Of a DNA stretch of 64,000 nt, positions 3,524 to 51,913 are shown piece after piece. Positions within the stretch are counted from its first letter, which is position 1. The number at the start of each line of letters is the position of its first letter. Under the pieces are notes generated by a model. It searched no databases. It was not told the DNA's origin and saw only the letters and a program-made list of their open reading frames with translations. Both the position numbers and the translations under genes were made by a program. The stretch is from positions 27,978-91,977 of the forward strand of contig VYCQ01000035.1 of assembly GCA_009843865.1 (NCBI GenBank), written 5' to 3'. The stretch comes from Acidimicrobiia bacterium. GTDB taxonomy: Bacteria; Actinomycetota; Acidimicrobiia; Acidimicrobiales; Bin134.

Positions 3524-6046
3524 GTGATAGCTAGCGACACACCAGACCCCTATCGCTTACCTCGAGAGGTGATACCTCAGCAGTACGTGCTGCGGCTAAC
3601 TCCAAACCTTGAGTCATTCACATTCACCGGAGAGGTGAGCGTGGACATCCTCGTAACAGAGCCGGTTAACCGAATTATGTTGAACGCTGCTGAGCTGAAG
3701 ATCACCTCAGCCAAGGTGGGCTCCTCGACCATCAGCGACATCCAATACGACCCTGATCACGAACGCGTCACGCTGGAATTGGCCGACCGTCTAGAACCTT
3801 GCATGTCCCAGCTCAACCTGTGCTTCAGCGGTACCTTGAACGAAAACCTCCACGGCTTCTATCGCTCTGTGTTTACCGATTCTGAAGATAACCAGCGAGT
3901 GATCGCTACCACCCAGTTTGAACCAACCAATGCCAGACGAGCCTTCCCGTGCTGGGATGAACCCGATCTTAAAGCCACCTTTGAGGTGACCCTGACAGTG
4001 CCTGAACACCTAATGGCCATCTCCTCAGGCGCAGAAACCTCTTCTCAACAGCTAGGCAACGGTCTCAAAGAAGTGAGGTTCGCTCCCACCATAAAAATGT
4101 CCACATATCTGCTGGCGTTCGTGATAGGACCATTAGAAACCACCAATCCAACCTGGGTGAACGGCACCCCGGTACGAATCATCCACCCCTTGGGCAAGGG
4201 CCACCTCACCGCATTTGCCTTAGAAGCTGCGGTCTTTTGCCTGAACTTCTTTGAAGACTACTTCGACATCGCCTACCCGGGCGACAAGCTAGACCTAGTA
4301 GCAATACCCGACTTTGCCTTCGGTGCCATGGAAAACATGGGATGCGTCACCTTTCGCGAAGCACTGCTGCTAATAGACCCCGCCACTTCCACTCAGCAAG
4401 AACGCCAATCCGCTGCCGATGTGATCGCCCATGAACTGGCCCACATGTGGTTTGGCAACCTCGTAACCATGCAATGGTGGAATGGGATCTGGCTCAAAGA
4501 AGCCTTAGCCACCTTCTGCGAAATGCTCGCCGTAGATGCTTTTCGCCCCGACTGGCAACGCTGGCTGACCTTTGGGTTATCTCGCACCGCTGCCTTTGAG
4601 GTAGACGCTTTAACCACCACCCGTGCAATCGAGTACCCGGTTATTTCACCACAAGATGCAGAGGGTATGTACGACCTGCTCACCTACCAAAAGGGGGCCG
4701 CGACAATACGCATGCTGGAGCAGTTCTTAGGCGCTGAGAAGTTCCGCAACGCCGTACAGTCTTACCTACGACAGCACTCTTACTCCAACACCGAAACCCA
4801 CCACCTCTGGGATGCCTTAACTGCCGCTACGGGTCAACCAGCACGAAATGTAATGGACTCTTGGATATTTCAGGGCGGCCACCCGCTGATAACTGCAACG
4901 GCTGATGCCGACCACAAGGTCACGCTCAGGCAGCAACGCTTTAGCTACAGCCCTCAGACCGAACAAGCCTCCTGGCAAGTACCAATAATTGTGGCCGCTG
5001 CCGACAACCACATCGAACACCTTGTACTAGGCGAACAAGCCGAGCTAAGGGCAACCGCAGAGAACTGGGTCATGCTGAACCCCAATGCTGATGGCTTCTA
5101 CAGGGTGTCTTACCAAAACAACCTGCTAACACGTCTGCTGCAAGACGGCCCGCAACTCAACCCACTCCAACGCTTTATGCTGTTAGACGACCAATGGGCG
5201 TTAACAGTAGCCAAGCAGCTACCACTAACGGAATACCTTCAATTGGCTGCACACATTGCCATCAGCGAAGACAATTTAGCCGTGTGGCAGCGACTCACAA
5301 ACACTCTGTCCACCCTTGACCACCTCAGCAACAACCAAGGCCGTGAGGCACTTCGCCAACAGACACGCAACATGATCGGCCCTACCTATCGCAGGCTGGG
5401 CTGGGAACAAACACTGCAAGAAGACGAACGTACCAACGAGCTACGAGGCGTGCTGGTGTGTAGCCTGGCAACTACCGGCAACGATCAAAATGTCATTGCA
5501 CGCTGTCGACAACTCTTCAACGCTGACGCAACCAACCCTGCCCTCGATGCCGCAGCCACCACAGTTGTAGCAACCACCGGCAATGCCGCAGACTACGAAA
5601 AAATACACCGCCGCCTAGCCGATGCCCCAACTCCACAACTCCAATTGCGCTATCTCACAGCACTCAGTTTATTTACCCAACCAGAGTTGATGGATCGCAC
5701 CCTTGCTGCCACCTTAGACGGAACAATTCGCAGCCAAGATGCAGGGTTTGTAATCCGCGACTGCCTGCGCAACCGCGAACGAGGGGTTCAAGCTTGGAGA
5801 TTTGTGACACAACGCTGGGATGAAATCAATCAAAAGATTCCATCTCAAATCATCCCACGCATGCTTGAAGGCATCTGCGCACTGTCTACCGCCCAACTAG
5901 CCAGTGAGATAACAGCATTCTTGAAAGCTCACCCTGTGTCGCAAGGCCCGCTAATCGTAGCCCAACACCTTGAGCGCCTCCAAGTGAATGTGCAGTTACG
6001 CCAGCGAGTAGCTCAAACGTTAATTAGTTCCAACCACAGCCCTTAG
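3524..6046 (+). CDS. pepN: Aminopeptidase N (M1 family zinc metallopeptidase)
   Basis: 840-aa ORF with a GTG start. It has the exopeptidase motif 'GAMENMG', the zinc motif 'HELAHMWFGN' and the downstream 'WLKEALA' Glu ligand. Confidence 0.92.
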   Translation: MIASDTPDPYRLPREVIPQQYVLRLTPNLESFTFTGEVSVDILVTEPVNRIMLNAAELKITSAKVGSSTISDIQYDPDHERVTLELADRLEPCMSQLNLCFSGTLNENLHGFYRSVFTDSEDNQRVIATTQFEPTNARRAFPCWDEPDLKATFEVTLTVPEHLMAISSGAETSSQQLGNGLKEVRFAPTIKMSTYLLAFVIGPLETTNPTWVNGTPVRIIHPLGKGHLTAFALEAAVFCLNFFEDYFDIAYPGDKLDLVAIPDFAFGAMENMGCVTFREALLLIDPATSTQQERQSAADVIAHELAHMWFGNLVTMQWWNGIWLKEALATFCEMLAVDAFRPDWQRWLTFGLSRTAAFEVDALTTTRAIEYPVISPQDAEGMYDLLTYQKGAATIRMLEQFLGAEKFRNAVQSYLRQHSYSNTETHHLWDALTAATGQPARNVMDSWIFQGGHPLITATADADHKVTLRQQRFSYSPQTEQASWQVPIIVAAADNHIEHLVLGEQAELRATAENWVMLNPNADGFYRVSYQNNLLTRLLQDGPQLNPLQRFMLLDDQWALTVAKQLPLTEYLQLAAHIAISEDNLAVWQRLTNTLSTLDHLSNNQGREALRQQTRNMIGPTYRRLGWEQTLQEDERTNELRGVLVCSLATTGNDQNVIARCRQLFNADATNPALDAAATTVVATTGNAADYEKIHRRLADAPTPQLQLRYLTALSLFTQPELMDRTLAATLDGTIRSQDAGFVIRDCLRNRERGVQAWRFVTQRWDEINQKIPSQIIPRMLEGICALSTAQLASEITAFLKAHPVSQGPLIVAQHLERLQVNVQLRQRVAQTLISSNHSP

Positions 6047-7027
6047 AGACTCGCGCAACGAACTCATAGTGGCTACCACCGAGGTTGGCTCATACCCACA
6101 GTGGGCCATGCAATTATCACAGCGAGGATCCCTACCTCGCCCATAACTATCCCAATCAGTGGTCTCTATCAACTCTGCGTAAGTTGACGTGTAACCATCC
6201 GCCATCAAATAGCAAGGCCGCTGCCAGCCAAACACCGAGTAACTAGGAACCCCCCAAGCCGTGCATTCATAATCCACCTTGCCCTCTAAGAAGTCCAAAA
6301 ACAAAGGCGTGTGGTTAAACCGCCACTTCTTGCGACGACCATCAGCAAACACCTCCTTAAACAATTTCTTGGTTTGCTCCACAGGCAAGAAGTTCGTCTG
6401 ATCAGATGCGCGTTCATAGGCATAACCAGGCGACACCATCATTGAGTCCACCTCTAGATCATCGTTCAAAAAGTCCAACACACTACGTACATCGTCAGGG
6501 CTATCTGTGTTGAAAAAAGTGCTGTTGGTGTTAACCCGAAAACCCTTCTTTTTGGCTACGGCAATGGCCTCAACCACCTCATCAAACACACCCGGCCGAG
6601 CCACAGCCAGATCATGTCGTTCCCTTAACCCATCCACATGCATCACAAAGGAAAAGTAGGGCGAAGGCTCAAACATATGCATCTTGCGTCGCAGCAGCAC
6701 TGCGTTGGTACACAAGTACACGAAGCATTTGCGCTTTACAAGCTCGGCCACCATCTCACCAATCTGAGGGTGCAACAGCGGTTCGCCCCCTGCTATAGAC
6801 ACCATTGGCGCGCCACACTCCTCCATGGCCGCCACTGCATCGGCCACGCTCACCCGCTGGCGCAACACCTCAGTAGGATATTGGATCTTGCCGCACCCTG
6901 GACACTCCAAATTGCAAGCAAAAAGCGGCTCTAACTCCACGATCAAGGGGTACTTTTTGCGGCCGCGTAATCGATTCTTCAGCACATAGATGCCAACCTT
7001 TACGGCTTGGCGAACCGGAATACCCAT
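6020..7027 (-). CDS. hpnH: Adenosyl-hopene transferase HpnH (radical SAM)
   Basis: 335-aa ORF with the radical-SAM cluster motif 'CNLECPGCGK'. The N-terminus (YPLIVELEPLFACNL...GAPMVSIAGGEPLLHP) is typical of HpnH. It is the last gene of the hopanoid operon, and its 3' end overlaps the convergent pepN by 27 nt. Confidence 0.85.
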   Translation of the reverse strand: MGIPVRQAVKVGIYVLKNRLRGRKKYPLIVELEPLFACNLECPGCGKIQYPTEVLRQRVSVADAVAAMEECGAPMVSIAGGEPLLHPQIGEMVAELVKRKCFVYLCTNAVLLRRKMHMFEPSPYFSFVMHVDGLRERHDLAVARPGVFDEVVEAIAVAKKKGFRVNTNSTFFNTDSPDDVRSVLDFLNDDLEVDSMMVSPGYAYERASDQTNFLPVEQTKKLFKEVFADGRRKKWRFNHTPLFLDFLEGKVDYECTAWGVPSYSVFGWQRPCYLMADGYTSTYAELIETTDWDSYGRGRDPRCDNCMAHCGYEPTSVVATMSSLRESLRAVVGTN

Positions 7028-7028
7028 C

Positions 7029-7598
7029 TCAACAAACTTCCTTAACTAGCACCGTCACTAACGCTGGCATAATACGACGAATGGTACGCAATGCCCGAAA
7101 CACTGCGGCTGGAGCACTCAGCGAACGCAGCTCGTGACTAGGCGTGTCGGTAACCACCCGCACCACCGCCGCAGGTCTGCGCTGGCGTTCCAACAACCAG
7201 GCAGACTCCATATCCACCGCTACCGCTCCCATATCGGCCAACTCCTGACGCCGTGCTCCCACCGCTAACCGAGACACGCAAGCCACCGAACCAGTATGCA
7301 CGGTAAAACCAGCGTTGCGAATGTCTTGAGCCACTTTCACAACCTGCGCCAACCCTATGGGAGCAACATCATGTGCCGACACATCAGTTGCCACCACTAC
7401 CTCGCCAGGCGCTATCTCATCTGTAACCGCGCCCGCTATGCCAACCACAACTACTGGTTTGTCAAACAATCCAACACGACGGCTGCGCTTAGGTCCCATT
7501 CCCGTACACAACACCTGAACAGGATCGCTTAGATACCGCACACCCCGACGAACCGCACGAGCCTCCATGGCCATCGGGCACAGCACTACCAAACTCAC
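7029..7598 (-). CDS. hpnG: Hopanoid-associated phosphorylase HpnG (PNP/UDP phosphorylase family)
   Basis: 189-aa ORF with nucleoside-phosphorylase-like blocks ('CTGMGPKRS', 'VVGIAGAV', 'AVAVDMESAW'). It sits between shc and hpnH, with a 4-nt overlap with shc. Confidence 0.7.
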   Translation of the reverse strand: MSLVVLCPMAMEARAVRRGVRYLSDPVQVLCTGMGPKRSRRVGLFDKPVVVVGIAGAVTDEIAPGEVVVATDVSAHDVAPIGLAQVVKVAQDIRNAGFTVHTGSVACVSRLAVGARRQELADMGAVAVDMESAWLLERQRRPAAVVRVVTDTPSHELRSLSAPAAVFRALRTIRRIMPALVTVLVKEVC

Positions 7599-9517
7599 TT
7601 GTCAACACTCATGGCCCGCACCCAACGCCCTAATGCCATCACCGGAAACACCAGCCGATATAAGTGATAGCGGATATAGAAGTCTCCAGAGAACCCGGTG
7701 CCCGTATGCCAAGGCTCATCCCAGTCGCCATCACTGCGTTGACATTCAATAAGCCAGCCCACGCCTCTGTGGGCAGCTTGCGTGTCTGCACGACCGGCAG
7801 CAATCAAACACAGCAAGGCCCAAGCCGTTTGCGAAGGCGTAGACTCCCCACGACCCCGCCACTGCAAGTCCACATAAGAGCGCATATCCTCGCCCCATCC
7901 CCCATCTGAATTCTGCACCGATTCTAACCAATCACAAGCCCGCACCACTAGCGGATCATCGCTGCTGACCCCTGCGCTGATAAGCGCAGGCACCACCGCA
8001 CCGGTACCATAAATATAGTTTGCCCCCCAACGCCCGTACCACGATCCGTCGGCTTCTTGATTGTCACTTAGCCAACGTACACCACGCTGTATGGCTTCTT
8101 GATCCACGCCATATCCATCAGCATCTTTGCCCAACTCACACAACATCTCCACTATATGAGCAGTAACATCAGCCGACGGCGGGTCAATCACCTCCCCAAA
8201 ATCACAAAACGGCAACTCCGCCACCAATGTCGAGCAATTGTCCGCATCAAAAGCTGCCCAGCCACCGTCGCTGCATTGCATCCCTTGAACCCAGCTCACA
8301 GCCCGCTTCAAAGCCTTTTGGGCTGCATTAGCGTCTTCAAGGTCGATCCGCCGCAGTGCTAAAGCAACCTCAGCGGTGTCATCTAAATCGGGGTAGTAGC
8401 TGTTCTCAAACTCAAATGCCCAACCCCCCGGAGACAGGTGAGGACGCTGTTCAGCCCAATCACCCACCACTTGCACCTCTTGGCTCAACAGCCAACTACC
8501 ACCTTTAACCATCTTGGAATGATCACAAGCAACACCAGCGTCTGCTAATGCCACTAATGACAAGCAAGTATCCCAAACCGGTGACTGACAGCACTCCAAG
8601 CGACGCATATCATTTTCAATAATCGTCCAAGTATCAAACCCGGCCAAGCCCTGCGCCATAATAGGATGCTGCAAAGAATAACCCCGCAAGTACAACGCCA
8701 AGAGCGAATACACCCAAGGAGGTTGAATTCCACCCCAGCAGCCATCGGCTTCTTGGCGGGCGATTATCCATTGCTCAGCACGATTCAGTGCCCAATTGCG
8801 TATCCGCCGATAGGGACGATTCTCATAACGATGCAGCAAACGATCTAACTGCTGAAAACGCCTAGCGGGAGATGCCAAAGGTGCTGGTTCTCGCTCAGCA
8901 GACCTAACGCCAGTGCGGATCTCGTCAATGTTAATACCCATTGAGCGCACCGGACGATGCGCTCCTACAACCGTGAGAGCCACCACTGTTTGACGAGCCC
9001 AACAAGCAAAATCATAAATATTTAAGGGCACTTGCTTAGGCAGCAAGATCACCTCAGGCGGTAAGGCAGGCAGGTCATCCCAACTCCAAAGACCAAACAA
9101 CGCCATCCATATCCGAGTAAATACCCGACTGCGCTCCAAGCCACCCTCACTGCGGATATAGGCAGCAGCTTTGATCATGTGATCTGCATCAGCAGGGTCA
9201 CCTGCATATCGCAAAGCCCAATAAGCCTCCACCGTTACCGATAAATCGGATGGACCCTGATAAAACGTAGGCCAAGTCCCGTCAGCACGCTGGGTATGGC
9301 GAATCCAATTGGCTGTTTGGCGGGTAATCTCAGCATCAGCAATACCTAAAAACTCGCGCAAGAACAGATCCTCAGCTTCAATACACACGTTGGTCTCTAG
9401 TTCGCCCTTCCACCAGCCCTGCGATGCTTGCAGGCTGAGGAGGCGATCTACGGCCTTGGACAAACTCTCTACAGCAGCGTTCAAAAGTCCCTCCCGACGA
9501 TAAACTCTGCCAGACAT
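7595..9517 (-). CDS. shc: Squalene-hopene cyclase
   Basis: 640-aa ORF with the catalytic 'DLDDTAEV' (DxDDTA) motif and multiple QW-type repeats (e.g. 'QNSDGGWGE', 'QEADGSWYGRWG', 'QRADGTWPTF'). The start is ambiguous: ATG at 9517 overlaps the upstream gene by 37 nt. The alternative is TTG at 9484, preceded by GGAGG and forming a TTGA start/stop overlap. Confidence 0.95.
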   Translation of the reverse strand: MSGRVYRREGLLNAAVESLSKAVDRLLSLQASQGWWKGELETNVCIEAEDLFLREFLGIADAEITRQTANWIRHTQRADGTWPTFYQGPSDLSVTVEAYWALRYAGDPADADHMIKAAAYIRSEGGLERSRVFTRIWMALFGLWSWDDLPALPPEVILLPKQVPLNIYDFACWARQTVVALTVVGAHRPVRSMGINIDEIRTGVRSAEREPAPLASPARRFQQLDRLLHRYENRPYRRIRNWALNRAEQWIIARQEADGCWGGIQPPWVYSLLALYLRGYSLQHPIMAQGLAGFDTWTIIENDMRRLECCQSPVWDTCLSLVALADAGVACDHSKMVKGGSWLLSQEVQVVGDWAEQRPHLSPGGWAFEFENSYYPDLDDTAEVALALRRIDLEDANAAQKALKRAVSWVQGMQCSDGGWAAFDADNCSTLVAELPFCDFGEVIDPPSADVTAHIVEMLCELGKDADGYGVDQEAIQRGVRWLSDNQEADGSWYGRWGANYIYGTGAVVPALISAGVSSDDPLVVRACDWLESVQNSDGGWGEDMRSYVDLQWRGRGESTPSQTAWALLCLIAAGRADTQAAHRGVGWLIECQRSDGDWDEPWHTGTGFSGDFYIRYHLYRLVFPVMALGRWVRAMSVDK

Positions 9518-10554
9518 CTCATTTCTTGGATGGCCTGAGCGTTCACCGTATTAGTCTGGGCAATAGAGTCTAAAGCCGTCACCGCCTCTTCGAAATGCTG
9601 ACGGGCCAGGGCTTGAGTTTGTTCACGCCCTCCACCTGCCTCCACAAGAACTTGAGCCTTATTCACTGCCGCGTCATCTAATACTGGCTGAGCAGCGACT
9701 AGATCCATTTGTGCGAGATCGGTTTGCGCAAGACCATCCGATATAAAACGACCTTCATCCTGACAACCATAGATTTTAGCGAGTTCTACAGCGACGGAGC
9801 TGCTGTTATTTAGTGCGATTACCACCGGCATAGATTTTTTACAAACTCGCAAATCAGATCCCGCGGGCTTGCCAGTTCGCGCAGGATCACCCCAAATACC
9901 CAAAAGATCGTCAGTAGCTTGAAATGCAATACCGAGGTGCATTCCGAAGTCAGCCAAAGCGCTAATAAACCCTTCATCGGCATCAGCCAAAATTGCCCCC
10001 ACCGAACACGCAAACGATAGAAGCGCCCCCGTCTTACCTCGCTCCATAGCCAAGCACTGCTCCACTGTGATGGTTGGCAAGTGCTCAAAAGCCATGTCCA
10101 TACTCTGACCGGCAATCATTGCAGACACCGCCCGCGTAAGCTCCCCGGCTGCGCGTACCCTAGCCGGGGTCGGGTCGGATAACAAAGTCTCATAAGCCAA
10201 AGCATGCAAAGCATCGCCGGTTATAACGCCCGTGCCCACTCCAAACTTTGCCCATACGGTAGGACGATGGCGGCGCTCAGTATCAGCATCAATTATGTCA
10301 TCATGGATGAGCGAGAAATCGTGAATGAGCTCGATTGCCACCGCCCCAGGAAGCCCCACATGGCTAGTAGCACCTGCGGCTTCCGCCGATAAGAGGGCCA
10401 ATGCAGGGCGAGCGCCTTTGCCCTTACCTTCACAATGATATATCGCGGACATGCTGAGCTCTGGATTCAGCCGCCGCAGAACCTCAAAGATAGCAGGGCC
10501 CACCAAGGCTTTCGCCCGTTCCAAAATGGCTGTAGCCTCCTCAGCACTGCTCAT
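9481..10554 (-). CDS. Polyprenyl diphosphate synthase (trans-isoprenyl diphosphate synthase family)
   Basis: 357-aa ORF with the first Asp-rich motif 'DDIIDADTERRHRPT' and the second 'ATDDLLGIWGD'. It forms an ATGA overlap with the hpnE stop codon. Confidence 0.9.
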   Translation of the reverse strand: MSSAEEATAILERAKALVGPAIFEVLRRLNPELSMSAIYHCEGKGKGARPALALLSAEAAGATSHVGLPGAVAIELIHDFSLIHDDIIDADTERRHRPTVWAKFGVGTGVITGDALHALAYETLLSDPTPARVRAAGELTRAVSAMIAGQSMDMAFEHLPTITVEQCLAMERGKTGALLSFACSVGAILADADEGFISALADFGMHLGIAFQATDDLLGIWGDPARTGKPAGSDLRVCKKSMPVVIALNNSSSVAVELAKIYGCQDEGRFISDGLAQTDLAQMDLVAAQPVLDDAAVNKAQVLVEAGGGREQTQALARQHFEEAVTALDSIAQTNTVNAQAIQEMRCLAEFIVGRDF

Positions 10555-11984
10555 GCTCTGGCCCTCTCACGTCGCAGGCTCTCAACTTTCGGGCTTTGAT
10601 GCGCCTCACCCCGTCGGCAGTATTGCACCGCGAGCTGTGCTGCGACATTGCCAGAGCGCACTGCGCCTTCCATGGTTGCTGGCCAGCCTGTGGCAGTCCA
10701 TGCGCCCGCCAAAAACAAGCCGTTCATAGCAGTTGCTGACTCCGGCCGGAGCCGCGCTGTATTAGGACGACCGGCAAAGGTAGCCCCGTGTTCGCGAGTA
10801 ACCACTGCATCCAACACCTCGGCTTCAGCCACCTTAGGAAACAAGTCAACCAAACCTAGGTAATAACGCTCGATGAGCTCACTAGGACTATCACCAATTT
10901 CACCAAACGCCGCCGACTGCGACACCGCTACCACTTGCTCACTGTTGTAAGGCCGCTTCCAAGCCGCAGCCTCGCTACGATCAAACACAAATTGCACTGG
11001 GGAGTCCAAAACTGCGGTAAACGGCACATCCATTACTGTACGGTCGAACACAAAATGTACGTTAAAGATGGGTGAGATGCCCAAATTCGTCAACGCTTTT
11101 TGCTGAGGCAAGGTGTTGGAGGGAAGCAACTCATCTACCACCTCATGAGACACCGCCAATATCACCGCATCAACTGCAACCTCCTCGCCCCCAACGGTAA
11201 GGCATGGCCCTTCACCAATCGCTGCTACTTGGGCCGACATCTGAACATTGCCACCACACCCGGTGATATGAGCGGCAGCCGCCTCCCCATGCAGCACAGC
11301 TAGAGGCACCTTAGTCCAACCCAAATCAGCACCATCAGGAGCATCCAACAAACCAGTACGAAACACCTTAGCCGCCAACGCTAAGGATGCCTCGTGAGCA
11401 CGCAGGTTCACGGTAGGCAAGCAGATCAGGTCCCAAAGCCCTGCTATAGCACCCTCTGACTCCCCCCGGGCGCTCAGCCATGACCCAAAGCTTTGCTGAT
11501 CCAAGCTATGATCTTCAAGATTCAAGCGACGCAGAGCCAACGCTGTGCGAATCGCCCTCATACGTTCCCCCACAGACAAAGGGCGGTAGCACAGCAACGA
11601 TCCAGCCATATGCAACGGTGCTGGAGCTGAGATGCGGGCTATGTGTGCGGTCGGCCGACCCGGACGCATCACCGGCACCTTCAAACGAGGCTGTTGAACA
11701 ACCTGATGAGATACCCCCAACCGCTCAAGAAAGGTCTTGTACTCGCTGCAACAACGCATGAACACATGCTGTCCATTATCAAACCAGCGTCCGTTGCGTT
11801 GAAACGACCAGGTCGCGCCACCTAAGCGGGGAGCGCGTTCATAGAGCGTTACCTGCATACCAGCGTCCACCACCGCGATCGCGGCAGCTAACCCAGCCAA
11901 GCCAGCACCCACAACTGCGATGTGAGGAGCCGCCTCAGGTGCAGGTGGTGTTTCTTCTCCTACCGCAACAGAAATCATGACCAC
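10551..11984 (-). CDS. hpnE: Hydroxysqualene dehydroxylase HpnE (FAD-dependent amine-oxidase fold)
   Basis: 477-aa ORF with the N-terminal dinucleotide-binding motif 'VAVVGAGLAGLAAA'. It lies directly after the two squalene/phytoene-synthase paralogues, as in hpnCDE clusters. Confidence 0.8.
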   Translation of the reverse strand: MVMISVAVGEETPPAPEAAPHIAVVGAGLAGLAAAIAVVDAGMQVTLYERAPRLGGATWSFQRNGRWFDNGQHVFMRCCSEYKTFLERLGVSHQVVQQPRLKVPVMRPGRPTAHIARISAPAPLHMAGSLLCYRPLSVGERMRAIRTALALRRLNLEDHSLDQQSFGSWLSARGESEGAIAGLWDLICLPTVNLRAHEASLALAAKVFRTGLLDAPDGADLGWTKVPLAVLHGEAAAAHITGCGGNVQMSAQVAAIGEGPCLTVGGEEVAVDAVILAVSHEVVDELLPSNTLPQQKALTNLGISPIFNVHFVFDRTVMDVPFTAVLDSPVQFVFDRSEAAAWKRPYNSEQVVAVSQSAAFGEIGDSPSELIERYYLGLVDLFPKVAEAEVLDAVVTREHGATFAGRPNTARLRPESATAMNGLFLAGAWTATGWPATMEGAVRSGNVAAQLAVQYCRRGEAHQSPKVESLRRERARA

Positions 11985-11986
11985 GC

Positions 11987-12856
11987 TTATATACGCACTC
12001 CGGATATACGCACTCCGGCCAAACTGCGAACCGCCACCCCCAACTTTTCCTTAGTAGTCAACGACACCCTACCGGCAAACACCTGAGTTGGTGAGGCCGC
12101 TATGCGAACCAGCAAACGACGATATATGCCAGCCATGGCCCCCACACAAGCACGGCTACGGTAATCCAGCATGTCCAGCAACTTAAGTCCTTGCACAAAA
12201 TGGCCTTCCGCTCTTCGGACCTCAAACGCCACCAATCTGCCCAAAGCATCAATCGGGCCAGTGAGATCAGGAGCGCATCTGAACCTTGCAATATCTTCAG
12301 CCGGCAAATACACACGACCCATAGCCCGATCTTCCACAATATCACGCAAGATGTTGGTGAGTTGAAGCGCCACCCCCAGCTCATCAGCTAACTCAGCAGC
12401 TACATCGGGGCGATCCTTTGTGCCAAATATACCTAGCGAAAGACGCCCTACCGAACCCGCCACCAAACGACAGTATCGCTTAGTGTCCTCAATGGTTTGA
12501 TACTCGGTGCCCACCGCATCTTGCTCGCAACCTTGGACGATCTCATTAAGCACCTCTAAGGGGATCGTAAACAACACAGCAGACGCGCTCAGTCCAACCA
12601 ACACCGGGTCTTCCGGGTCGCTGAGCCTCCCAGAGACCAGCTCAGCGATATCGCTGCGCAATTTCTTTAAACGAACTAGCTTCTCTTCACACTGAAACGG
12701 CCCATCACCCACATCGTCAATGCGCCGGGCCATGGCATAAAGGGCCGACATGGCTTGACGCTTAGGTTTAGGCAACAACCTAATGCCATAAGCAAAATTG
12801 CGAGCCTCCTTCCAAGTTATCTCCTCGCAACACCGATAAGCCTCTTGTGCTCTCAT
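11987..12856 (-). CDS. hpnD: Presqualene diphosphate synthase HpnD (squalene/phytoene synthase family)
   Basis: 289-aa ORF with Asp-rich motifs 'ARRIDDVGDG' and 'NILRDIVEDRAMGRVYLP'. It is second in the hpnC-D-E order. Confidence 0.8.
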   Translation of the reverse strand: MRAQEAYRCCEEITWKEARNFAYGIRLLPKPKRQAMSALYAMARRIDDVGDGPFQCEEKLVRLKKLRSDIAELVSGRLSDPEDPVLVGLSASAVLFTIPLEVLNEIVQGCEQDAVGTEYQTIEDTKRYCRLVAGSVGRLSLGIFGTKDRPDVAAELADELGVALQLTNILRDIVEDRAMGRVYLPAEDIARFRCAPDLTGPIDALGRLVAFEVRRAEGHFVQGLKLLDMLDYRSRACVGAMAGIYRRLLVRIAASPTQVFAGRVSLTTKEKLGVAVRSLAGVRISGVRI

Positions 12857-13740
12857 CTACGCACCCAGCGTGACAAGCTAGGCGGCATTAGCAAACCCAC
12901 CATATAAATCACTATTCGGATACGCGCGGGTGACCGTAGCTTGGACAATACATCGTTTTGGCCTACCGAAATTGCGTCTAACGCAGCCAAACCACCCGCT
13001 ACATAACCCGCCACCGCTACCTTAACCCAGCCGTTGAGTGAACCCACCAAAAGCTTGCCTCTGTTGACTAGCCCCCGAGCTGCGCTAACTTGGTGAGCTA
13101 CAAGCTGACATAGCTGAGGTGATGCTCGCTCAGCAGACAGGTCAGCCTCAGCCACTCCAAAACGAACCATCTCGTCGGCTGGCATGTAAATGCGCTGCTT
13201 TTGGGTGTAGTCCTCACCAAGGTCTTGGAGATGTTCAATGATCTGTAAGCCAGTACACACCGCATCGCTCAAAGCGATACGGTCAGGAGTAGCAACCCCA
13301 AATACCGCTAGCACCAACCATCCCACCGGATTGGCTGACAGCATGCAGTACTCAGCTAGCTCTGCTTGACTTTGATAACGATTTTTGCACTGATCACGTC
13401 GATTGGCCTCAATCAAAGCTAAAAAAGGCTCATCGCTGATCTCTAAGTCGTTCAGCAGCCCAGTGAGATTGCGCATGACCGGATGTGTTGCGGTGGCAGA
13501 CCTAGCCCGCCGAAGTTCAGCTTCTAGCCAATCCAACGCCGCTAGCCTGTTGCCAACCAACTCGTCACCAATGTCATCAACTAGGCGAGCAAAACCGTAG
13601 ATGGCTAAAAGATGTGAGCGCTGACGCGCTGGCAAAACTCGCAATGCTACTGAAAAGTTCTCGTTACCCTTTTGGGCCATTATCGATTTCAGGTCAAACT
13701 CAACTCCAACCTTAGAACTAGAGAACTGATCTAGAGACAC
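12853..13740 (-). CDS. hpnC: Hydroxysqualene synthase HpnC (squalene/phytoene synthase family)
   Basis: 295-aa ORF with motifs 'ARLVDDIGDE' and 'IIEHLQDLGEDYTQKQRIYMP'. It overlaps hpnD by 4 nt. Confidence 0.8.
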   Translation of the reverse strand: MSLDQFSSSKVGVEFDLKSIMAQKGNENFSVALRVLPARQRSHLLAIYGFARLVDDIGDELVGNRLAALDWLEAELRRARSATATHPVMRNLTGLLNDLEISDEPFLALIEANRRDQCKNRYQSQAELAEYCMLSANPVGWLVLAVFGVATPDRIALSDAVCTGLQIIEHLQDLGEDYTQKQRIYMPADEMVRFGVAEADLSAERASPQLCQLVAHQVSAARGLVNRGKLLVGSLNGWVKVAVAGYVAGGLAALDAISVGQNDVLSKLRSPARIRIVIYMVGLLMPPSLSRWVRR

Positions 13741-15381: not shown

Positions 15382-16383
15382 TTAGCTTTCCATAGCAGCA
15401 ATGATTGTTTGACCATAAGCATTGAGGGTCTCAGTTGGCTGATCATGCATAAGGTAAATAGCAAACTGATCCACCCCCAACGACTCCAAATGCCGCAAAC
15501 GCGCAAGATGGGCATTCTCATCACCTAGCAGGCAGAAGCGATCAATTATGTCATCGGGCACAAAGTCGGTATGTGCATGGCCAGCTTTACCGTGACCGCT
15601 GTAGTCGTAACCCTTTCGCCCTGTGATGTAATCGGTAAGAGCTTTGGGCACATCACCACCTTGATTACCATAGCGCTGCACTAGATCAACTACATGATTG
15701 CCCACCATAGCACCAAACCAACGGCACTGCTCACGCTGATGGGCGATGTTAGAACCCACATAAGCTGGTGCCGCCACACAGATATACAAGCTGTCGGGGT
15801 CACGACCCGCTTCTTCAGCAGCACGCCGCACAGCAGCAATAGACCACTCAACAATAGCTGGATCAGCTAACTGAAGGATGAAACCATCGGCTTTCCTACC
15901 ACACAAGCGCAGCGCCTTAGGGCCATAAGCCGCCATCAACATCTTGAGTTCCGACTCTTTGGCCCACCCCAAACTTTGTTGCGAGCCGTTATAAATAACA
16001 TTTCGCCCCTCAGCCAGATTCTTTATCACCCCCATGGCCTCGCTCAAGGTAGCCAAACTACAAGGGGAACGACCGATCACCCGCATAGCCGAATCACCTC
16101 GGCCGATACCACACATGGTTCGGTTGCCAAACATCTCGTTCAAAGTGGCAAACATTGAGGCGGTCACCGTCCAATCGCGCGTAGCCGGATTGGTGACCAT
16201 AGGGCCGACGATCATACGGTCAGTAGCCGACAACATCTGGCTATAGATCACAAAGGGCTCTTGCCACAGCACATGGCTGTCAAAAGTCCAAGCGTAGCCA
16301 AAGCCCAACGACTCGGCCTTCCGCGCGAGATCAACCACGCGCCACGCTGGCGGATCGGTCTGAAAGACAACCCCAAAATCCAC
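15382..16383 (-). CDS. LLM-class (luciferase-like) flavin/F420-dependent oxidoreductase
   Basis: 333-aa ORF with a TIM-barrel luciferase-like pattern ('MDFGVVFQTDPP...LGFGYAWTFDSH', 'GIGRGDSA'). The cofactor cannot be decided from sequence by eye. Confidence 0.7.
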   Translation of the reverse strand: MDFGVVFQTDPPAWRVVDLARKAESLGFGYAWTFDSHVLWQEPFVIYSQMLSATDRMIVGPMVTNPATRDWTVTASMFATLNEMFGNRTMCGIGRGDSAMRVIGRSPCSLATLSEAMGVIKNLAEGRNVIYNGSQQSLGWAKESELKMLMAAYGPKALRLCGRKADGFILQLADPAIVEWSIAAVRRAAEEAGRDPDSLYICVAAPAYVGSNIAHQREQCRWFGAMVGNHVVDLVQRYGNQGGDVPKALTDYITGRKGYDYSGHGKAGHAHTDFVPDDIIDRFCLLGDENAHLARLRHLESLGVDQFAIYLMHDQPTETLNAYGQTIIAAMES

Positions 16384-16427
16384 AGCTACCCAACCAAGGG
16401 GATCTCAACCATTAAATCAAATGCCTG

Positions 16428-17837
16428 CTAAATCAAATAGCTGCTCAGGCCACGCCGCTGATATCGCCCATGACCCCTAACACCCAGATACTGACCGTTA
16501 TCAATAATCACACGACCTCGTGACAAAACAACGTCCACATGACCGCTTACTTGAATACCCTCATAAGCCGAGTGGTCAATGTTCATATGGTGATTATCAA
16601 CGCTGATCGTCCAAGATGCCTGCGGATCATAGATCACCACATCAGCATCTGCACCAGGCTGAATCGTTCCCTTACGAGGGTACAACCCCATCATGCGAGC
16701 TGGGGTTGTAGAGCACAACTCCACCCACCGCGGCAAATTTATCTCACCAGCTACAACCCCTTGAAAAATGAGATCCATACGATGCTCTACCGTGCCTAGG
16801 CCATTCGGAATAGCTCTGAAGTCTCCAACCCCCAACTCCTTTTGCTCTTTCATACAAAATGGACAATGGTCAGTAGACACCACCGCTAAGTCATTAGTTC
16901 GCAACCCTTTCCACAGCTCATCTTGATGATGATCGTGACGAGAGCGAATGGGGGTAGAACATACATAAGCAGCGCCCTCCCAACCCTGATCCAAATGTTC
17001 CTCAAGGCTGAAATACAGATACTGCGGACAGGTCTCAGCAAAAACATTGGCACCGTCGTTACGGGCAATCGCCACCTGCTCTAGGGCTTGCTTAGCCGAC
17101 AAATGCACTATATACAGCGGGGCAGCGCCAACCTTGGCCAACGCAATAGCCCGATGGGTGGCTTCTGATTCAAATTCAGCCCGACGTACATATCCATGAG
17201 TGACAGGATCGGTCTCGCCTCGCTCAAAAGCCTGCTCGGCGAGCACATCAATGGCAATCCCGTTCTCAGCATGCATCATCATCAACCCACCGTTACCAGC
17301 ACACTGTTGCATGGCCCGCAAGATTTGGCCGTCATCACTGTAAAGCACTCCCGGATAAGCCATGAACAGCTTAAAACTGCTGACACCCTCGTTTATGAGC
17401 AGATCCATCTCCTTAAGGGCGGCATTAGTGACATCGCCAATAATCATGTGAAAGCCATAGTCAATAGCGCAACGACCCTCAGCCTGTGCCAAGCGAGCCT
17501 CAAAGCACTCCCGTACATCTAATCCATAACTTTGAGTGGCGAAATCCACAATGGTGGTGGTACCACCCCAAGCAGCGGCCCGCGTACCGGTTTCAAAGTC
17601 ATCAGCGGCCACTGTGCCACCAAAAGGCATCTCCATATGAGTATGAACGTCCACTCCACCGGGCACAACCAGCTTGCCGAGGGCATCAATCACCTGCTCA
17701 GCCCCATTCTCTGCCATCACGGCCACCTCAGAGGCCGGTTGCAGCACAGCAGCGATAGTCTCGCCATCAACCAGAACCTCTGCGAGGTCGGCACCGGTAG
17801 AACTAACTACCGTGCCGTTCTTAATGAGCGTTCTCAT
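16428..17837 (-). CDS. Dihydropyrimidinase / D-hydantoinase
   Basis: 469-aa ORF of the cyclic amidohydrolase family. It has the metal motif 'GGVDVHTHMEMPF', the carbamyl-Lys context 'SSFKLFMAY', 'MMHAENG' and 'STDHCPF'. Confidence 0.9.
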   Translation of the reverse strand: MRTLIKNGTVVSSTGADLAEVLVDGETIAAVLQPASEVAVMAENGAEQVIDALGKLVVPGGVDVHTHMEMPFGGTVAADDFETGTRAAAWGGTTTIVDFATQSYGLDVRECFEARLAQAEGRCAIDYGFHMIIGDVTNAALKEMDLLINEGVSSFKLFMAYPGVLYSDDGQILRAMQQCAGNGGLMMMHAENGIAIDVLAEQAFERGETDPVTHGYVRRAEFESEATHRAIALAKVGAAPLYIVHLSAKQALEQVAIARNDGANVFAETCPQYLYFSLEEHLDQGWEGAAYVCSTPIRSRHDHHQDELWKGLRTNDLAVVSTDHCPFCMKEQKELGVGDFRAIPNGLGTVEHRMDLIFQGVVAGEINLPRWVELCSTTPARMMGLYPRKGTIQPGADADVVIYDPQASWTISVDNHHMNIDHSAYEGIQVSGHVDVVLSRGRVIIDNGQYLGVRGHGRYQRRGLSSYLI

Positions 17838-17843
17838 AACAAC

Positions 17844-18713
17844 CTAAGCATCAACTAACAAGCCGTACATATCTGGACGACGATCCTGATAAAAGGCCCA
17901 TTGAGCTCGGGTCTCTTCAATGAAGGCATAGTCCAAATCCCTAATCAGCAGCTCCTCTTGGGTGTCCGATGCTGGATCCTCAACGAACTCGCCGCGAGGA
18001 TTGGCAAAGTAAGAAGTGCCGTAAAAGTCATTGCCGCCTAGGGCCTCAGCACCCACTCGGTTGATCGCCCCCACGAAATAGACATTGACCGCAGCCGCTG
18101 CCGTCTGCTCTAGCTTCCATAGATACGAAGACAAACCTCGGCTAGTAGCTGAAGGGTTGAACACTAACTGCGCCCCATTTAAACCCAGCGCACGCCACCC
18201 TTCTGGAAAATGGCGGTCGTAGCAAATGTAAACCCCAACCTTGCCTACAGCGGTATTGAACACTGGGAAGCCCAGATTGCCCGGACGAAAGTAAAACTTC
18301 TCCCAAAACCCCTTGAGATGGGGAATATGTACCTTGCGATATTTACCTAAATAAGTGCCATCAGCATCTAGCACAGCAGCAGTGTTATAGAACACCCCAG
18401 GCTGTTCCTGCTCATACATAGGGACTACCAGCACCATATTGTGCCTAGCTGCTACTTCCTGGAACCTCTTGGTAGTGGGTCCATCGGGAATAGCCTCAGC
18501 GTAGCTGCAATAGTCAGACTCTTGCACCTGACAAAAGTAAGGAGCATTAAACAACTCTTGAAAACACATAACTTGGGTTCCAACAGAGGCAGCCTCAGAC
18601 ACATATTGCTCGTGCAGCTCAATCATCGACTCCCGATCACCGGTCCATACAGTCTGTACTACTGCGGCCCTAACAACGTTAGAAATGGGGTGCCTCCGAA
18701 CTTTAAACGACAT
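17844..18713 (-). CDS. Carbon-nitrogen hydrolase family protein, beta-ureidopropionase / N-carbamoyl-amino-acid amidohydrolase-like
   Basis: Nitrilase-superfamily triad context ('FQELF', 'YRKVHIP', 'ICYDRHFPE'). It sits next to the dihydropyrimidinase gene. The start is set at ATG 18713 (MSFKVRR...). The ORF stays open to a TTG at 18800, so the 5' end is uncertain. Confidence 0.8.
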   Translation of the reverse strand: MSFKVRRHPISNVVRAAVVQTVWTGDRESMIELHEQYVSEAASVGTQVMCFQELFNAPYFCQVQESDYCSYAEAIPDGPTTKRFQEVAARHNMVLVVPMYEQEQPGVFYNTAAVLDADGTYLGKYRKVHIPHLKGFWEKFYFRPGNLGFPVFNTAVGKVGVYICYDRHFPEGWRALGLNGAQLVFNPSATSRGLSSYLWKLEQTAAAAVNVYFVGAINRVGAEALGGNDFYGTSYFANPRGEFVEDPASDTQEELLIRDLDYAFIEETRAQWAFYQDRRPDMYGLLVDA

Positions 18714-18823
18714 TGAAAGGAGCAAAACCCCCGATGAACCTGAATTATTGCATAAACAACTAGCTCTTGCAGACCCAAACGTCTGCCAGCAAATCCCCAA
18801 AGTATCGATGGTATCCTTCAGAC

Positions 18824-19180
18824 ATGGCCGAAATAACCATCTACCACAATCCTGGTTGAGGCAGTTCTAAAAGCGCTCTCGAAGTACTTGAGTCGCAGGG
18901 CATCGAGTTCGATGTCGTTCACTACCTCAAAACCCCCTTAAGCCAGCAAGAGCTGGAACGCCTATTGGAGATACTAGACAGCGCGCCTAGCAACTTGGTG
19001 CGCCAAGACAGTTACTTTAAAAGGTTAGATTTGAATATTGAGGATTACCAAAACTCCTCAGAAGTAGTACAACTCTTATTGAAGCATCCTAAATTGATGC
19101 AACGTCCCGTAGCGGTTCGAGGCAACAAAGCAATCATCAGCCGCCCCCCTAAAAAAATAATGGAATTGCTGCAAGTTTGA
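18824..19180 (+). CDS. arsC: Glutaredoxin-type arsenate reductase ArsC family protein with an in-frame TGA at the catalytic Cys position (selenocysteine candidate or nonsense pseudogene)
   Basis: ATG at 18824, then MAEITIYHNPG-[TGA 18857-18859]-GSSKSALEVLESQGIEFDVVHYLKTPLSQQELERLLEILD..., in the same frame as the tracked ORF 18965-19180. It aligns column-for-column with the ArsC N-terminal motif IYHNPxCGxSR. The three ArsC Arg contexts are retained ('LVRQDSY', 'LMQRPVAV', 'IISRPP'). Confidence 0.7.
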
Positions 19181-19207: not shown

Positions 19208-20278
19208 GTGCAAGCCAAGCAGCCACTACTAAAGGTTGAAGATCTCCGCACATACTTCGGCACGCCCACAGGAATACTCAAAGCAGTAGATGGCGTGAGC
19301 TTCTCTTTAAATAAAGGCGAAACCATTGGCATCGTTGGCGAATCGGGTTCAGGTAAATCCGTACTCGTGCGATCGATCATGAACATCTTAAGCAGCAACG
19401 CCATCATTGCCGAAACATCTAAAGTACATTTCAACGGCAAGGACATCTCACGATTACGCCATTGCGAAGCCAAGCATTTCTGGGGAACGCAAATGGCCAT
19501 GATCTTCCAAGACCCAATGACTTCGCTTAACCCGGTCAAGAAAATCGGTACACAAATCACCGAATCAATTCGCTTTCATCTCAAAGCATCGAAGAAAGAA
19601 GCTATACAAAAAGCTCTTGAACTCATGGGGCAAGTGGGTATTCCCGAACCCCGCAAACGACTCAAGCAATACCCCCATCAGCTTTCAGGCGGGATGCGCC
19701 AAAGGATTACCATCGCCATCGCTTTGGCCTGCAATCCTAAACTGTTGATTGCAGATGAGCCCACCACAGCACTAGATGTCACTGTCCAAAAACAAATCCT
19801 AGATCTACTGGCCTCGCTCCAAGAAAAATTAGAGATGGCAATGATCCTAATCACCCATGATTTAGGTGTGGTTGCGGGGCGGACTCAACGCATTGGAGTT
19901 ATGTACGCAGGCAAAATGCTAGAAACAGCCGACACTAAAACCTTATTTCGCAATATGAACCATCCCTACACCGAGGCACTATTCAAATCGATCCCTCGAA
20001 TAGAAAACCAAGCCCATAGCAGGCTCGAAGCCATCAGCGGGTACCCACCCGATATGACCCGCGCTCTACTAGGATGTCGATTCGCCCCGCGCTGTCGCTA
20101 TGCCCAAGACCAATGCCTGAACGAAGAGCCCAATTTGTTTGAGACAGATCAAGCAGATCACCAGCAAGCATGCTTTTTCCCAGTGGGTTCACCCGAAAAC
20201 AAACAAGCCCATGCTGTCAACCAGAAAACAGGGATAACTGCTGCTGGCCTTGCCCTAACAGCGGCGGTAAGGTCATAG
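19208..20278 (+). CDS. Oligopeptide/dipeptide ABC transporter ATP-binding protein (OppD/DppD-like)
   Basis: 356-aa ORF with Walker A 'GESGSGKS', signature 'LSGGMRQR' and Walker B 'LLIADEPTTALD'. The C-terminal Cys-rich oligopeptide-ATPase extension 'GCRFAPRCRYAQDQC' is present. Confidence 0.9.
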   Translation: MQAKQPLLKVEDLRTYFGTPTGILKAVDGVSFSLNKGETIGIVGESGSGKSVLVRSIMNILSSNAIIAETSKVHFNGKDISRLRHCEAKHFWGTQMAMIFQDPMTSLNPVKKIGTQITESIRFHLKASKKEAIQKALELMGQVGIPEPRKRLKQYPHQLSGGMRQRITIAIALACNPKLLIADEPTTALDVTVQKQILDLLASLQEKLEMAMILITHDLGVVAGRTQRIGVMYAGKMLETADTKTLFRNMNHPYTEALFKSIPRIENQAHSRLEAISGYPPDMTRALLGCRFAPRCRYAQDQCLNEEPNLFETDQADHQQACFFPVGSPENKQAHAVNQKTGITAAGLALTAAVRS

Positions 20279-20311
20279 TCTGGCCGCCTGCAAGCCAAGG
20301 AAGGTCATCTG

Positions 20312-21319
20312 ATGGCTGGTTGCGGTAAAGCTCATCTCAGAGGCAGCACTGCACTCTTGTCAGTAGAAGACCTTGTAGTGGAGTTTCCCGCTGGTCGTCG
20401 CACCACAATACACGCTGTATCAGGCATCAGCTTCGATGTGCTTGAGGGCGAGACTTTAGGGGTGGTGGGCGAATCTGGCTGTGGTAAATCTGCTACAGCC
20501 AGAGCCATCATGCAGCTACCGCCGCCTAATTCGGGGTCGGTTATCTTTGATGGTGAGCAGATGACCCAACTCTCCAAAGAAAACCTACGTCGCAGCCGCA
20601 CCCGCATGCAGATGATCTTTCAAGACCCCATCTCTTCGCTAAACCCCCGCCGCAAGGTGAACGAAATAGTGGCCGAAGGATTATCTATTTGGCACACCGA
20701 TTCCGATGATATTGCAATCCGGAGAGTACACGCAATGCTTGAAGCCGTAGGTCTTGACCCCAAAGCTGTAGAAAATAGGCGACCACATCAATTCTCCAGT
20801 GGGCAATGTCAACGCATATGCATCGCCCGAGCCATGATACTAGACCCCAAGCTAATCATCTGCGACGAACCAGTGTCAGCCCTAGACGTATCGGTGCAAG
20901 CGCAGATCTTGAACCTGCTAACAAACATGAAAAAACGCTACGGGCTCACCTTGGTGTTCATTGCCCACGACCTAGCTGTAGTTAAAAACGTATCCGACAG
21001 GGTAGTGGTGATGTATCTGGGCAAGATATGCGAAGTAGCAGACCCCGACAGGCTCTACACCCATGCGGCGCACCCCTACACCGACATCTTGCTGGCATCG
21101 GTTCCTAAGCCCGACCCGCACATGCCGATACCCAAACTCCAAATCACCGGAGAATTACCATCGCCTATCAACCCACCCTCAGGCTGCCGCTTCCGCACCC
21201 GCTGTACAAAAGCCCAAGATGTTTGCGCAGTCCAAGAACCCTCGCTTCAGAAAATCAGCTCTAACCACTTCGTAGCCTGCCACTTTCCCAACGAGACATC
21301 CACCCACGTAGCAATCTAG
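20312..21319 (+). CDS. Oligopeptide/dipeptide ABC transporter ATP-binding protein (OppF/DppF-like)
   Basis: 335-aa ORF with Walker A 'GESGCGKS', signature 'FSSGQCQR', Walker B 'LIICDEPVSALD' and the C-terminal 'GCRFRTRCTKAQDVC'. Confidence 0.9.
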   Translation: MAGCGKAHLRGSTALLSVEDLVVEFPAGRRTTIHAVSGISFDVLEGETLGVVGESGCGKSATARAIMQLPPPNSGSVIFDGEQMTQLSKENLRRSRTRMQMIFQDPISSLNPRRKVNEIVAEGLSIWHTDSDDIAIRRVHAMLEAVGLDPKAVENRRPHQFSSGQCQRICIARAMILDPKLIICDEPVSALDVSVQAQILNLLTNMKKRYGLTLVFIAHDLAVVKNVSDRVVVMYLGKICEVADPDRLYTHAAHPYTDILLASVPKPDPHMPIPKLQITGELPSPINPPSGCRFRTRCTKAQDVCAVQEPSLQKISSNHFVACHFPNETSTHVAI

Positions 21320-46765: not shown

Positions 46766-47095
46766 ATGGCGAATGACATTGACACGGGGAGCATCTCCCC
46801 ACCTCAACGTAAACCTGAGAGCACGGTCAATGTCCGCGGACTCAGCGAGAGCGAGCTTGAGATCTATGTAAGCGCTTTGCTCACGAGCATCGGTGAAGCC
46901 CCAAGCGGTTCCAGTGCTGGCGTGGCTAGCCTCGCGGCGGTGTGGGTGATCAGTCAGGTCGAAGAAGCATGCGGAGGTGGACACCTCGTCAATCCCAAGG
47001 ACCTCACCAAAGATGATTTCGCTACTTCAACAGCCCTGAGCCGAATGCTGCATCGGCAGATCCACAAGCAAGATGCACCACTAGTTGAGTTATGA
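46766..47095 (+). CDS. Acyl/peptidyl carrier protein-like ORF
   Basis: 109-aa ORF. 'ELEIYVSALLTSIGEAP...SAGVASLAAVWVISQVEEACGGGHLVNPKDLTKDDFATSTALSRML' fits the four-helix carrier layout, with 'GVASL' in place of the G-x-D-S-L phosphopantetheine-attachment site (Ser retained). Its stop overlaps the next ATG (ATGA), and an AcpS-type PPTase lies two genes downstream. Confidence 0.5.
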   Translation: MANDIDTGSISPPQRKPESTVNVRGLSESELEIYVSALLTSIGEAPSGSSAGVASLAAVWVISQVEEACGGGHLVNPKDLTKDDFATSTALSRMLHRQIHKQDAPLVEL

Positions 47096-47922: not shown

Positions 47923-48422
47923 AGGGCGACGATGCCCCTGTGGCTTTGCCGTCAACGGCTCTCGCTTCAGCAATGGATGCCGCGACGTTGGCTGAAGATC
48001 GCGACGGGGTCGTAGGTATTGGGATGGACCTCATATCGGTCCCAAGAATGGACCAACTTGTTTCCGAAGGCAGGCCAGCGTTTCTTGACCGTGGCTGGAC
48101 ACCAAGCGAATTAGCCGAAGCCGATGGTGACCCGGAACGGCTCGCCACACGGTGGGCTGCGAAAGAGGCGGCGATGAAGTGCTTAGGACTGGGGATCAGC
48201 GATCTCGACCCGCGAGACATCGAGATCACTACGTCAGAATCGGGGGCTCCGAAGGTCGCGTTACGTGGTCCGGCTGCCGAACGTGCCCAATCGCTTGGTA
48301 TCTCGAAGCTTCATGTCTCTGCCTCACATGAATGTGGCTGGGCTGCGGCAATCGCAGTTGCATCCAAATGGACGGGACAAGAGGATCTGGAAGTGCCACA
48401 TCAACGAAAGGACAAATCATGA
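47919..48422 (+). CDS. 4'-phosphopantetheinyl transferase, AcpS (holo-ACP synthase) type
   Basis: 'VVGIGMDLISVPRM...RWAAKEAAMKCLGLGI...DIEITTSESGAPKVAL...LHVSASHECGWAAAIAVA' matches AcpS blocks (GxDxxxxxR, KEAxxKA, SxSH). The GTG start at 47919 overlaps the upstream TGA (GTGA). An alternative start is ATG 47973. Confidence 0.75.
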   Translation: MKGDDAPVALPSTALASAMDAATLAEDRDGVVGIGMDLISVPRMDQLVSEGRPAFLDRGWTPSELAEADGDPERLATRWAAKEAAMKCLGLGISDLDPRDIEITTSESGAPKVALRGPAAERAQSLGISKLHVSASHECGWAAAIAVASKWTGQEDLEVPHQRKDKS

Positions 48423-48796: not shown

Positions 48797-48799
48797 CCC

Positions 48800-50110: not shown

Positions 50111-50113
50111 ACA

Positions 50114-51775: not shown

Positions 51776-51913
51776 GAGTGAGTAGGCGGGTTACCATTCG
51801 CGCTCTCATCGGGCAAGACCAATTCTTGCGAGATGACGTGTAGACAAAAGGCCGACATCCACAGGTGAAGCCCATCTTCACCGTTCCGAGTGTCTTTTAC
51901 GGTCGCTGGGTGC

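Follow-up and report, generated by a model that had tools for sequence, protein, structure and literature searches.

A UGA codon in place of the catalytic cysteine of an ArsC-family gene from Acidimicrobiia: a predicted selenoprotein of the UxxS type

Arsenate reductases with selenocysteine (Sec) in a UxxS motif were described as a new family from the Sargasso Sea, represented by 14 sequences (Zhang, Fomenko & Gladyshev 2005, PMC1088965), and UxxS selenoproteins of the same kind were reported from the GOS (Zhang & Gladyshev 2008, PMC2398784). Two reviews, of 2022 and 2026, place the UxxS family under COG1393/TIGR00014 (PMC9312934, PMC13188914). The published consensus for bacterial SECIS (bSECIS) hairpins asks for 3-9 nt in the apical loop, 4 bp or more in the upper stem, a G in the first two loop positions, a distance of 16-37 nt from the UGA to the loop, and a minimum free energy (MFE) of -7.5 kcal/mol or lower (PMC13188914). 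The original prediction for the locus studied here had pointed to ArsC-like selenoproteins in marine metagenome surveys, and the reports of 2005 and 2008 bear this out.

Here we describe a gene, arsC(Sec), in a 64-kb stretch of DNA (the window) from an Acidimicrobiia metagenome-assembled genome (MAG). Judged by its sequence, the encoded protein fits the UxxS selenoprotein family 'Arsenate reductase (ArsC) 1' on all sequence-level criteria. The shared features are homology to PF03960/TIGR00014, a predicted Sec in place of the catalytic Cys, the U-x-x-S motif, a SECIS-type hairpin just past the UGA, and widespread Cys homologues. We find no essential difference from the family, whose reference is MBT3519430.1; the window copy was placed by the family criteria. 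The gene is a genuine yet ordinary member of a known selenoprotein family. It opens no new biological question: the family was already described in 2005, and the biochemistry of all its members is only predicted. Its main value concerns annotation and method: reading the raw sequence recovers a selenoprotein gene that standard gene callers shorten.

Reading frame and protein family of arsC(Sec)

The original prediction had the frame open at an ATG, run through MAEITIYHNPG into a TGA, and continue beyond it into an open reading frame (ORF) called mechanically at 18965-19180. Translation agrees with this in full. The ATG (18824-18826) is followed by the eleven-residue N-terminus and by TGA as codon 12, which is the only internal in-frame TGA, and the frame is otherwise open as far as its terminal TGA. 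The mechanically called ORF is the C-terminal portion of this 118-codon frame (Table 1). The ATG is taken as the start because all homologues start at the same position, M-A/T-E/K-I, and an alternative in-frame TTG upstream (18767) was dismissed on the same ground. Neither a sigma-70-like promoter nor an intrinsic terminator was found around the gene.

With U scored as C, the translation matches the Pfam ArsC model PF03960 at 44.3 bits (cut-off 24, E 2e-11). Among the NCBIfam models, TIGR00014, arsenate reductase (glutaredoxin), scores highest with 99.5 bits, which narrowly misses the equivalog cut-off of 106.05. TIGR01617 reaches 53 bits where its cut-off is 75, and the Spx-type models score far lower, also below their cut-offs. 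In view of the near miss with TIGR00014, we file the protein under the ArsC family, with arsenate reductase as its probable function. The redox motif U12-G13-S14-S15 (UGSS) fits UxxS and has no second Cys. The UxxC 'arsenate reductase-like' family (NF041106; 'Arsenate reductase 2', cd03032) and Spx/MgsR share with the window protein the ArsC/Spx thioredoxin-like fold and a Sec or Cys at the N-terminal end of helix 1. Identity with either was dismissed, given the UGSS motif without a second Cys and the sub-cut-off scores of the Spx-type models.

HMMER alignment to the solved structures of R773 ArsC (1i9d, 1jzw) pairs residues 1-117 of the window protein with residues 1-117 of the plasmid enzyme. 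The alignment contains a single offsetting pair of one-residue gaps between Arg60 and Arg94, and the catalytic numbering is unchanged. As had been predicted, the TGA codon falls on the nucleophilic Cys12 of R773 ArsC. The three arginine contexts said to be intact (LVRQ, MQRP and ISRP) correspond to Arg60, Arg94 and Arg107, and the gene carries no other lesion. Position 12, His8, Ser15 and the three arginines are shared with R773 / E. coli ArsC and are unchanged in an alignment of nine diverse Sec-type proteins. The two proteins differ at position 12, which is Cys in R773 ArsC and predicted Sec here, and in length, the R773 enzyme having 141 residues and the window protein 118, without the C-terminal tail. 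The product would therefore be described, if the UGA is decoded as predicted, as a 118-residue reductase of the ArsC family with a thioredoxin fold and Sec12, encoded by UGA, as its active-site nucleophile.

Table 1 Features of the arsC(Sec) locus (positions in the window)
Feature	Position	Strand	Details
arsC(Sec), complete coding sequence	18824..19180	+	118 codons including UGA codon 12; stop 19178-19180
UGA, predicted selenocysteine codon	18857..18859	+	residue 12, UxxS; TGA in 21 orthologous loci and in L039; TGC/TGT in 104 Cys-type homologues
Candidate bacterial SECIS hairpin	18873..18896	+	folding; bSECIS criteria; hairpin at nearly the same site in 21 orthologues
Second conserved hairpin, GGCAUCG-AGUU-CGAUGUC	18899..18916	+	folding; pairing across 21 Sec-type sequences; synonymous constraint
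Arg60 codon (LVRQ)	19001..19003	+	oxyanion-binding Arg of ArsC; aligned to 1i9d Arg60; invariant in 9 Sec-type proteins
Arg94 codon (MQRP)	19103..19105	+	aligned to R773 Arg94; invariant in the Sec-type alignment
Arg107 codon (ISRP)	19142..19144	+	aligned to R773 Arg107; invariant in the Sec-type alignment

Gene neighbourhood and probable substrate

On one side of the gene lies a divergent pyrimidine-degradation cluster, and on the other a pair of OppD/OppF-type ABC ATPase genes. The pyrimidine-degradation set (window 15382-18800, minus strand) consists of a luciferase-like oxidoreductase, a dihydropyrimidinase and a CN-hydrolase. The ATPase pair (ABC_tran + oligo_HPY, window 19208-21319) begins 28 nt past the arsC(Sec) stop and has no adjoining permease or binding-protein gene. 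Relatives of 55-76% identity (L037, L040/L041, L001, L042/L043) have the same order, arsC(U), ATPase, ATPase, in some cases with an RDD-family gene inserted; this order is missing in the 'HUNSS' clade and in Cys-type homologues. No arsR, arsB/ACR3 or arsA was found near arsC(Sec) in the window or in its syntenic relatives, and the gene lies outside any ars operon, unlike the R773 system. We note that an association with arsenic resistance genes is common in the ArsC family and not strictly defining.

Since the R773 ArsC catalytic constellation is preserved and the top matches, by family as well as by structure, are all glutaredoxin-type arsenate reductases, arsenate reduction by selenolate 12 appears to be the most likely chemistry. 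By analogy with R773 ArsC, selenolate 12, ringed by Arg60, Arg94 and Arg107, would attack arsenate, giving a covalent As(V) adduct. This adduct would then be resolved, with release of arsenite, by a low-molecular-weight thiol together with a glutaredoxin- or mycoredoxin-type partner. Because the ars operon context is missing, arsenate is only slightly favoured as the predicted substrate.

A different substrate is the alternative that survives best. It bears on the substrate alone and is in keeping with UGA recoding: the gene would encode a genuine selenoprotein, an ArsC-fold selenol oxidoreductase, perhaps tied to the downstream OppD/OppF-type ATPases. The missing ars genes and the conserved order of arsC(U) and the two ATPases are consistent with this possibility, although the synteny is limited to one clade and may be mere inherited gene order. 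Similarly, the TIGR00014 score lies slightly below the equivalog cut-off, and the functions of such predicted selenoproteins are uncharacterised according to the 2026 review (PMC13188914), but Arg60, Arg94, Arg107, His8 and Ser15 are exactly as in R773 ArsC and no family or structure outside the glutaredoxin-type arsenate reductases gives a better match. Taken together, we hold a substrate other than arsenate to be a tentative possibility, and keep arsenate as the preferred assignment.

The TGA codon and the downstream hairpins across homologues

Orthologues were searched by scanning one genome per species, and 38 homologous loci were returned. The codon aligned with Cys12 is TGA in 18 of the 38 (L001-L005, L007-L014, L016, L017, L019, L037 and L038), and distant homologues from the same scan have TGC or TGT in its place. 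Further TGA loci (L040-L043) were reached through N-terminally truncated protein-database matches (P0001, P0026, P0032 and others). In each of the contigs behind these truncated proteins, the missing N-terminus is encoded upstream and is broken by the same TGA. Several loci were found by C-terminal peptide patterns or through proteins lacking the N-terminus, and therefore the conservation of the N-terminus and of the TGA is not an artefact of the search. The distinct Sec-type sequences number 21 in total; they come from independent assemblies, most of which are MAGs of Acidimicrobiia or Actinomycetes and one a Pseudomonadales MAG, and share about 41-76% protein identity with the window. Another contig (L039, GCA_009835645.1) is near-identical to the window, syntenic, and has the same TGA. 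The Cys-type homologues, 104 in number, carry TGC or TGT at this codon. Among relatives, TGA is kept down to about 41% identity, with TGC or TGT in the more distant homologues, and this check, named in the original prediction, favours a selenoprotein. These comparisons record the Sec form of ArsC, in a clean Sec/Cys pair, from MAGs of Acidimicrobiia and Actinomycetes; sponge-associated lineages are included, such as Ca. Poriferisocius, which is among the closest relatives of the source MAG.

Synonymous differences are found in codons 1-11, upstream of the TGA, in all comparisons. Against the closest orthologue (L037), there are three synonymous and no nonsynonymous differences, and against L001 there are five and two, respectively; for L040, L002 and L042 the nonsynonymous count equals or exceeds the synonymous one. 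The downstream frame is open and the catalytic arginines are intact in every orthologue. Relaxed constraint, which would have pointed to a decaying gene, was not seen in these comparisons: the catalytic arginines are invariant, and the differences from L037 ahead of the TGA are all synonymous.

The Pseudomonadales sequence (L002; JAYGFA010000025.1, 5001-5348) is a Sec-type ArsC in a gammaproteobacterial MAG and reads MEKILLYHNPG-U-GKS. By sequence it falls among the Acidimicrobiia 'GUG[SK]S' forms, but its SECIS hairpin has a sequence of its own. Its presence in this MAG could be due to horizontal transfer or to mis-binning.

A stem-loop had been predicted about 14 nt after the TGA, where a bacterial SECIS would be expected. 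The hairpin exists and begins 13 nt past the UGA, although its own energy is no better than that of shuffled sequences. It has the form GCG..CUCGA-AGUAC-UUGAG.CGC, with a lower stem of 3 bp (GCG/CGC), an upper stem of 5 bp (CUCGA/UUGAG) and a 5-nt AGUAC loop at 18883-18887 that begins 23 nt past the UGA. The hairpin satisfies the published bSECIS criteria, with a borderline energy (-7.8 against -7.5 kcal/mol). This energy is at the level of shuffled sequences (z = -0.84; 28 of 200 dinucleotide shuffles are as good), 56 of 500 shuffles equal the hairpin on SECIS-type criteria, and the hairpin is the weakest of the Sec-type set. It resembles the E. coli fdhF-type SECIS and the bSECIS model in lying within the coding sequence right after the UGA, in its 23-nt spacing and in an MFE at or below -7.5 kcal/mol, and differs from the fdhF element in that the two have no sequence similarity.

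It is the comparative evidence, not the window sequence alone, that takes this feature beyond chance. We implemented the published bSECIS criteria ourselves and applied them to each sequence separately, with Cys-type genes as controls. All 21 Sec-type genes pass, at spacings of 17-29 nt (23-24 nt in 16 of them). The criteria are loose, as 41 of the 104 controls, about 40%, also pass, with scattered spacings; in about 10 of the 104 the passing hairpin has a spacing of 16-24 nt. A metagenome scan was seeded with a peptide pattern that ended in C, substituted for U, and all of the 80 genes it returned are Cys-type; with such a seed the scan yields Cys-type genes only, so it serves as a control set and is silent on the abundance of Sec-type genes. 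The stem sequences vary by lineage with the pairing kept (CUCGAG/CUCGAG, CUGAAG/CUUCAG, CCGUGGC/GCCACGG, GCGCAAU/AUUGCGC and CAAUGC/GCAUUG), and one such switch alters the amino acids, from LExLE to LKxLQ, while pairing is maintained. As the position of the hairpin shifts by 1-6 nt among lineages, fixed-column covariation in two registers gives only a modest signal, and we therefore rely on the per-sequence criteria with Cys-type controls. A search of Rfam returned no RNA family, SECIS or other, for the whole window at gathering thresholds or for 18800-19000 at E <= 10. Rfam contains no general model of bacterial SECIS elements, and this null result therefore carries no information. The expectation of a SECIS-like fold is supported by the bSECIS criteria. 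The lineage-specific set of hairpins could help to train predictors of bacterial SECIS elements and selenoproteins.

A second hairpin follows directly (Table 1). Its energy is -9.5 kcal/mol (z = -3.49), and its AGUU loop lies 46 nt past the UGA, beyond the 16-37 nt spacing of the bSECIS consensus. Over the 21 Sec-type sequences, 83.7% of cells are paired, with some compensatory changes, and near-complete nucleotide identity is found in orthologues of only 60-76% protein identity. Part of this pairing is explained by the conserved peptide I/V-E-F-D-V. Synonymous constraint was measured as the frequency of identical codons at conserved residues, in six Sec-type genes and in the four closest Cys-type genes. 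In the Sec-type genes, codon identity is 0.66 in codons 13-37 compared with 0.35 in codons 38-116, whereas it is flat in the Cys-type genes (0.57 and 0.55 over the same regions). Synonymous variation is thus suppressed over the 25 codons after the UGA, and only in Sec-type genes. The constraint is strongest in codons 25-37 (0.77 compared with 0.35 downstream), which span the second hairpin. The second hairpin may belong to a longer recoding signal. A more elaborate proposal holds that the two hairpins form one recoding element, about 60-75 nt long and dependent on the second hairpin, and, separately, that the protein partners the downstream ATPases rather than detoxifying arsenic; we consider this proposal rather unlikely.

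Decoding of the UGA and annotation of the gene

Among the window's 44 ORFs with a length of 180 aa or more, 17 end in TGA; the original prediction had likewise noted TGA stops in other genes there. The genetic code in the window is therefore standard, and a reassignment of TGA is ruled out. ARAGORN found no tRNA-Sec in the 64-kb window or in 18 Sec-type loci. SelA, SelB and SelD were absent among window ORFs of at least 180 aa, and the 5-10 kb around the orthologues likewise contained no tRNA-Sec, selA, selB or selD. In the literature, most sponge-symbiont bins have SelA together with SelB (PMC5649159), and Actinomarina, another lineage of the class Acidimicrobiia, has selA, selB, selC and selD (bioRxiv 10.64898/2026.04.03.716425). 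From this indirect support, at the level of class and habitat, we infer that the Sec machinery is encoded elsewhere in the source genome.

Considering the sequence comparisons together, TGA codon 12 is very probably read as selenocysteine in an ArsC-type reductase, the insertion of Sec itself being deduced from these comparisons. The proposal of a Sec-containing ArsC instead of a fresh nonsense mutation is supported by the TGA in 21 loci, by the hairpin in all Sec-type genes and by the intact constraint. In the proposed mechanism, the first in-gene hairpin, with its AGUAC loop, would act as a bacterial SECIS at the UGA, and the adjacent second hairpin would possibly assist recoding. SelB-GTP carrying Sec-tRNA(Sec) would bind the hairpin, deliver Sec and thereby avoid termination; which of the two hairpins binds SelB is presumptive.

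The other ways of reading the UGA fare far worse. The UGA might be read through without Sec, by near-cognate or suppressor decoding as Trp or Cys or by insertion of Cys via the Sec machinery, and the product would be a full-length non-selenoprotein. The lack of Sec machinery genes in the window and in the orthologue flanks would agree with such read-through, as would the weakness of the window hairpin. However, the aligned residue is always Cys in the homologues, in the typical pattern of a Sec/Cys pair, and TGA is retained over deep divergence even though Cys, as TGC or TGT, is a single base change away. The position-conserved hairpin, the synonymous constraint specific to Sec-type genes and the use of TGA as a normal stop elsewhere in the window also argue against this explanation, which we regard as very unlikely.

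It is also conceivable that the UGA is not crossed at all, and that the functional product is the N-terminally truncated protein of public annotation (92 aa or 71 aa). Gene callers annotate it in this way in many MAGs (for example, P0001, P0026, P0031-P0044 and P0058), but such a protein would lack the nucleophile, His8, and the first strand and helix of the thioredoxin fold. In addition, the annotated starts vary among orthologues (residues 21, 27, 35 and about 48), and the upstream MxxIxxYHNPx-TGA is conserved, with the synonymous differences described above. We give this explanation hardly any credence. A pseudogene arising from a recent nonsense mutation, or an error of sequencing or assembly, is suggested by the lone in-frame stop when one sequence is viewed by itself, and is effectively refuted by the TGA shared with 21 distinct orthologous loci and an independent near-identical assembly, by the invariant catalytic residues without any further lesion, by the purely synonymous pre-stop differences from the closest orthologue and by the open downstream frame in every orthologue.

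The public record of the window gene is the truncated 92-aa protein only. Gene calls in the clade, including those named above and that of L039 (10001-10279), are 69-96 aa long with varied internal starts and without the active site, and at least 13 of 117 database relatives are N-terminally truncated and lack the active site. Across many MAGs, a selenoprotein is systematically mis-annotated in this way.

A mechanical screen of the window for further ORFs interrupted by TGA yielded about 100 candidates. Twelve of them, which lie in gaps of the gene map or have a long downstream part, were rejected, as they translate to low-complexity, off-frame junk, and no second selenoprotein gene was evident from this screen.

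Several other features of the window were observed. A hopanoid/squalene cluster (6020-13740, minus strand), which adjoins the pyrimidine-degradation set, contains genes for a radical-SAM HpnH-like protein, a nucleosidase-like protein, a squalene-hopene cyclase, a polyprenyl synthase and an amine-oxidase-type desaturase, and two SQS_PSY genes. The ORF in the position of rplJ (ribosomal protein L10; 36787-37401, minus strand) has an unusual C-terminal extension of tandem repeats, with about three copies of LSELASLLEAP. The region 47000-62600 is an apparent accessory/defence island. Within it, several unannotatable ORFs, with long overlapping ORFs on both strands at about 48229-50110, precede a type I restriction-modification system consisting of hsdM-like (56530-58080), hsdS-like (58077-59180) and hsdR-like (59177-62593) genes.
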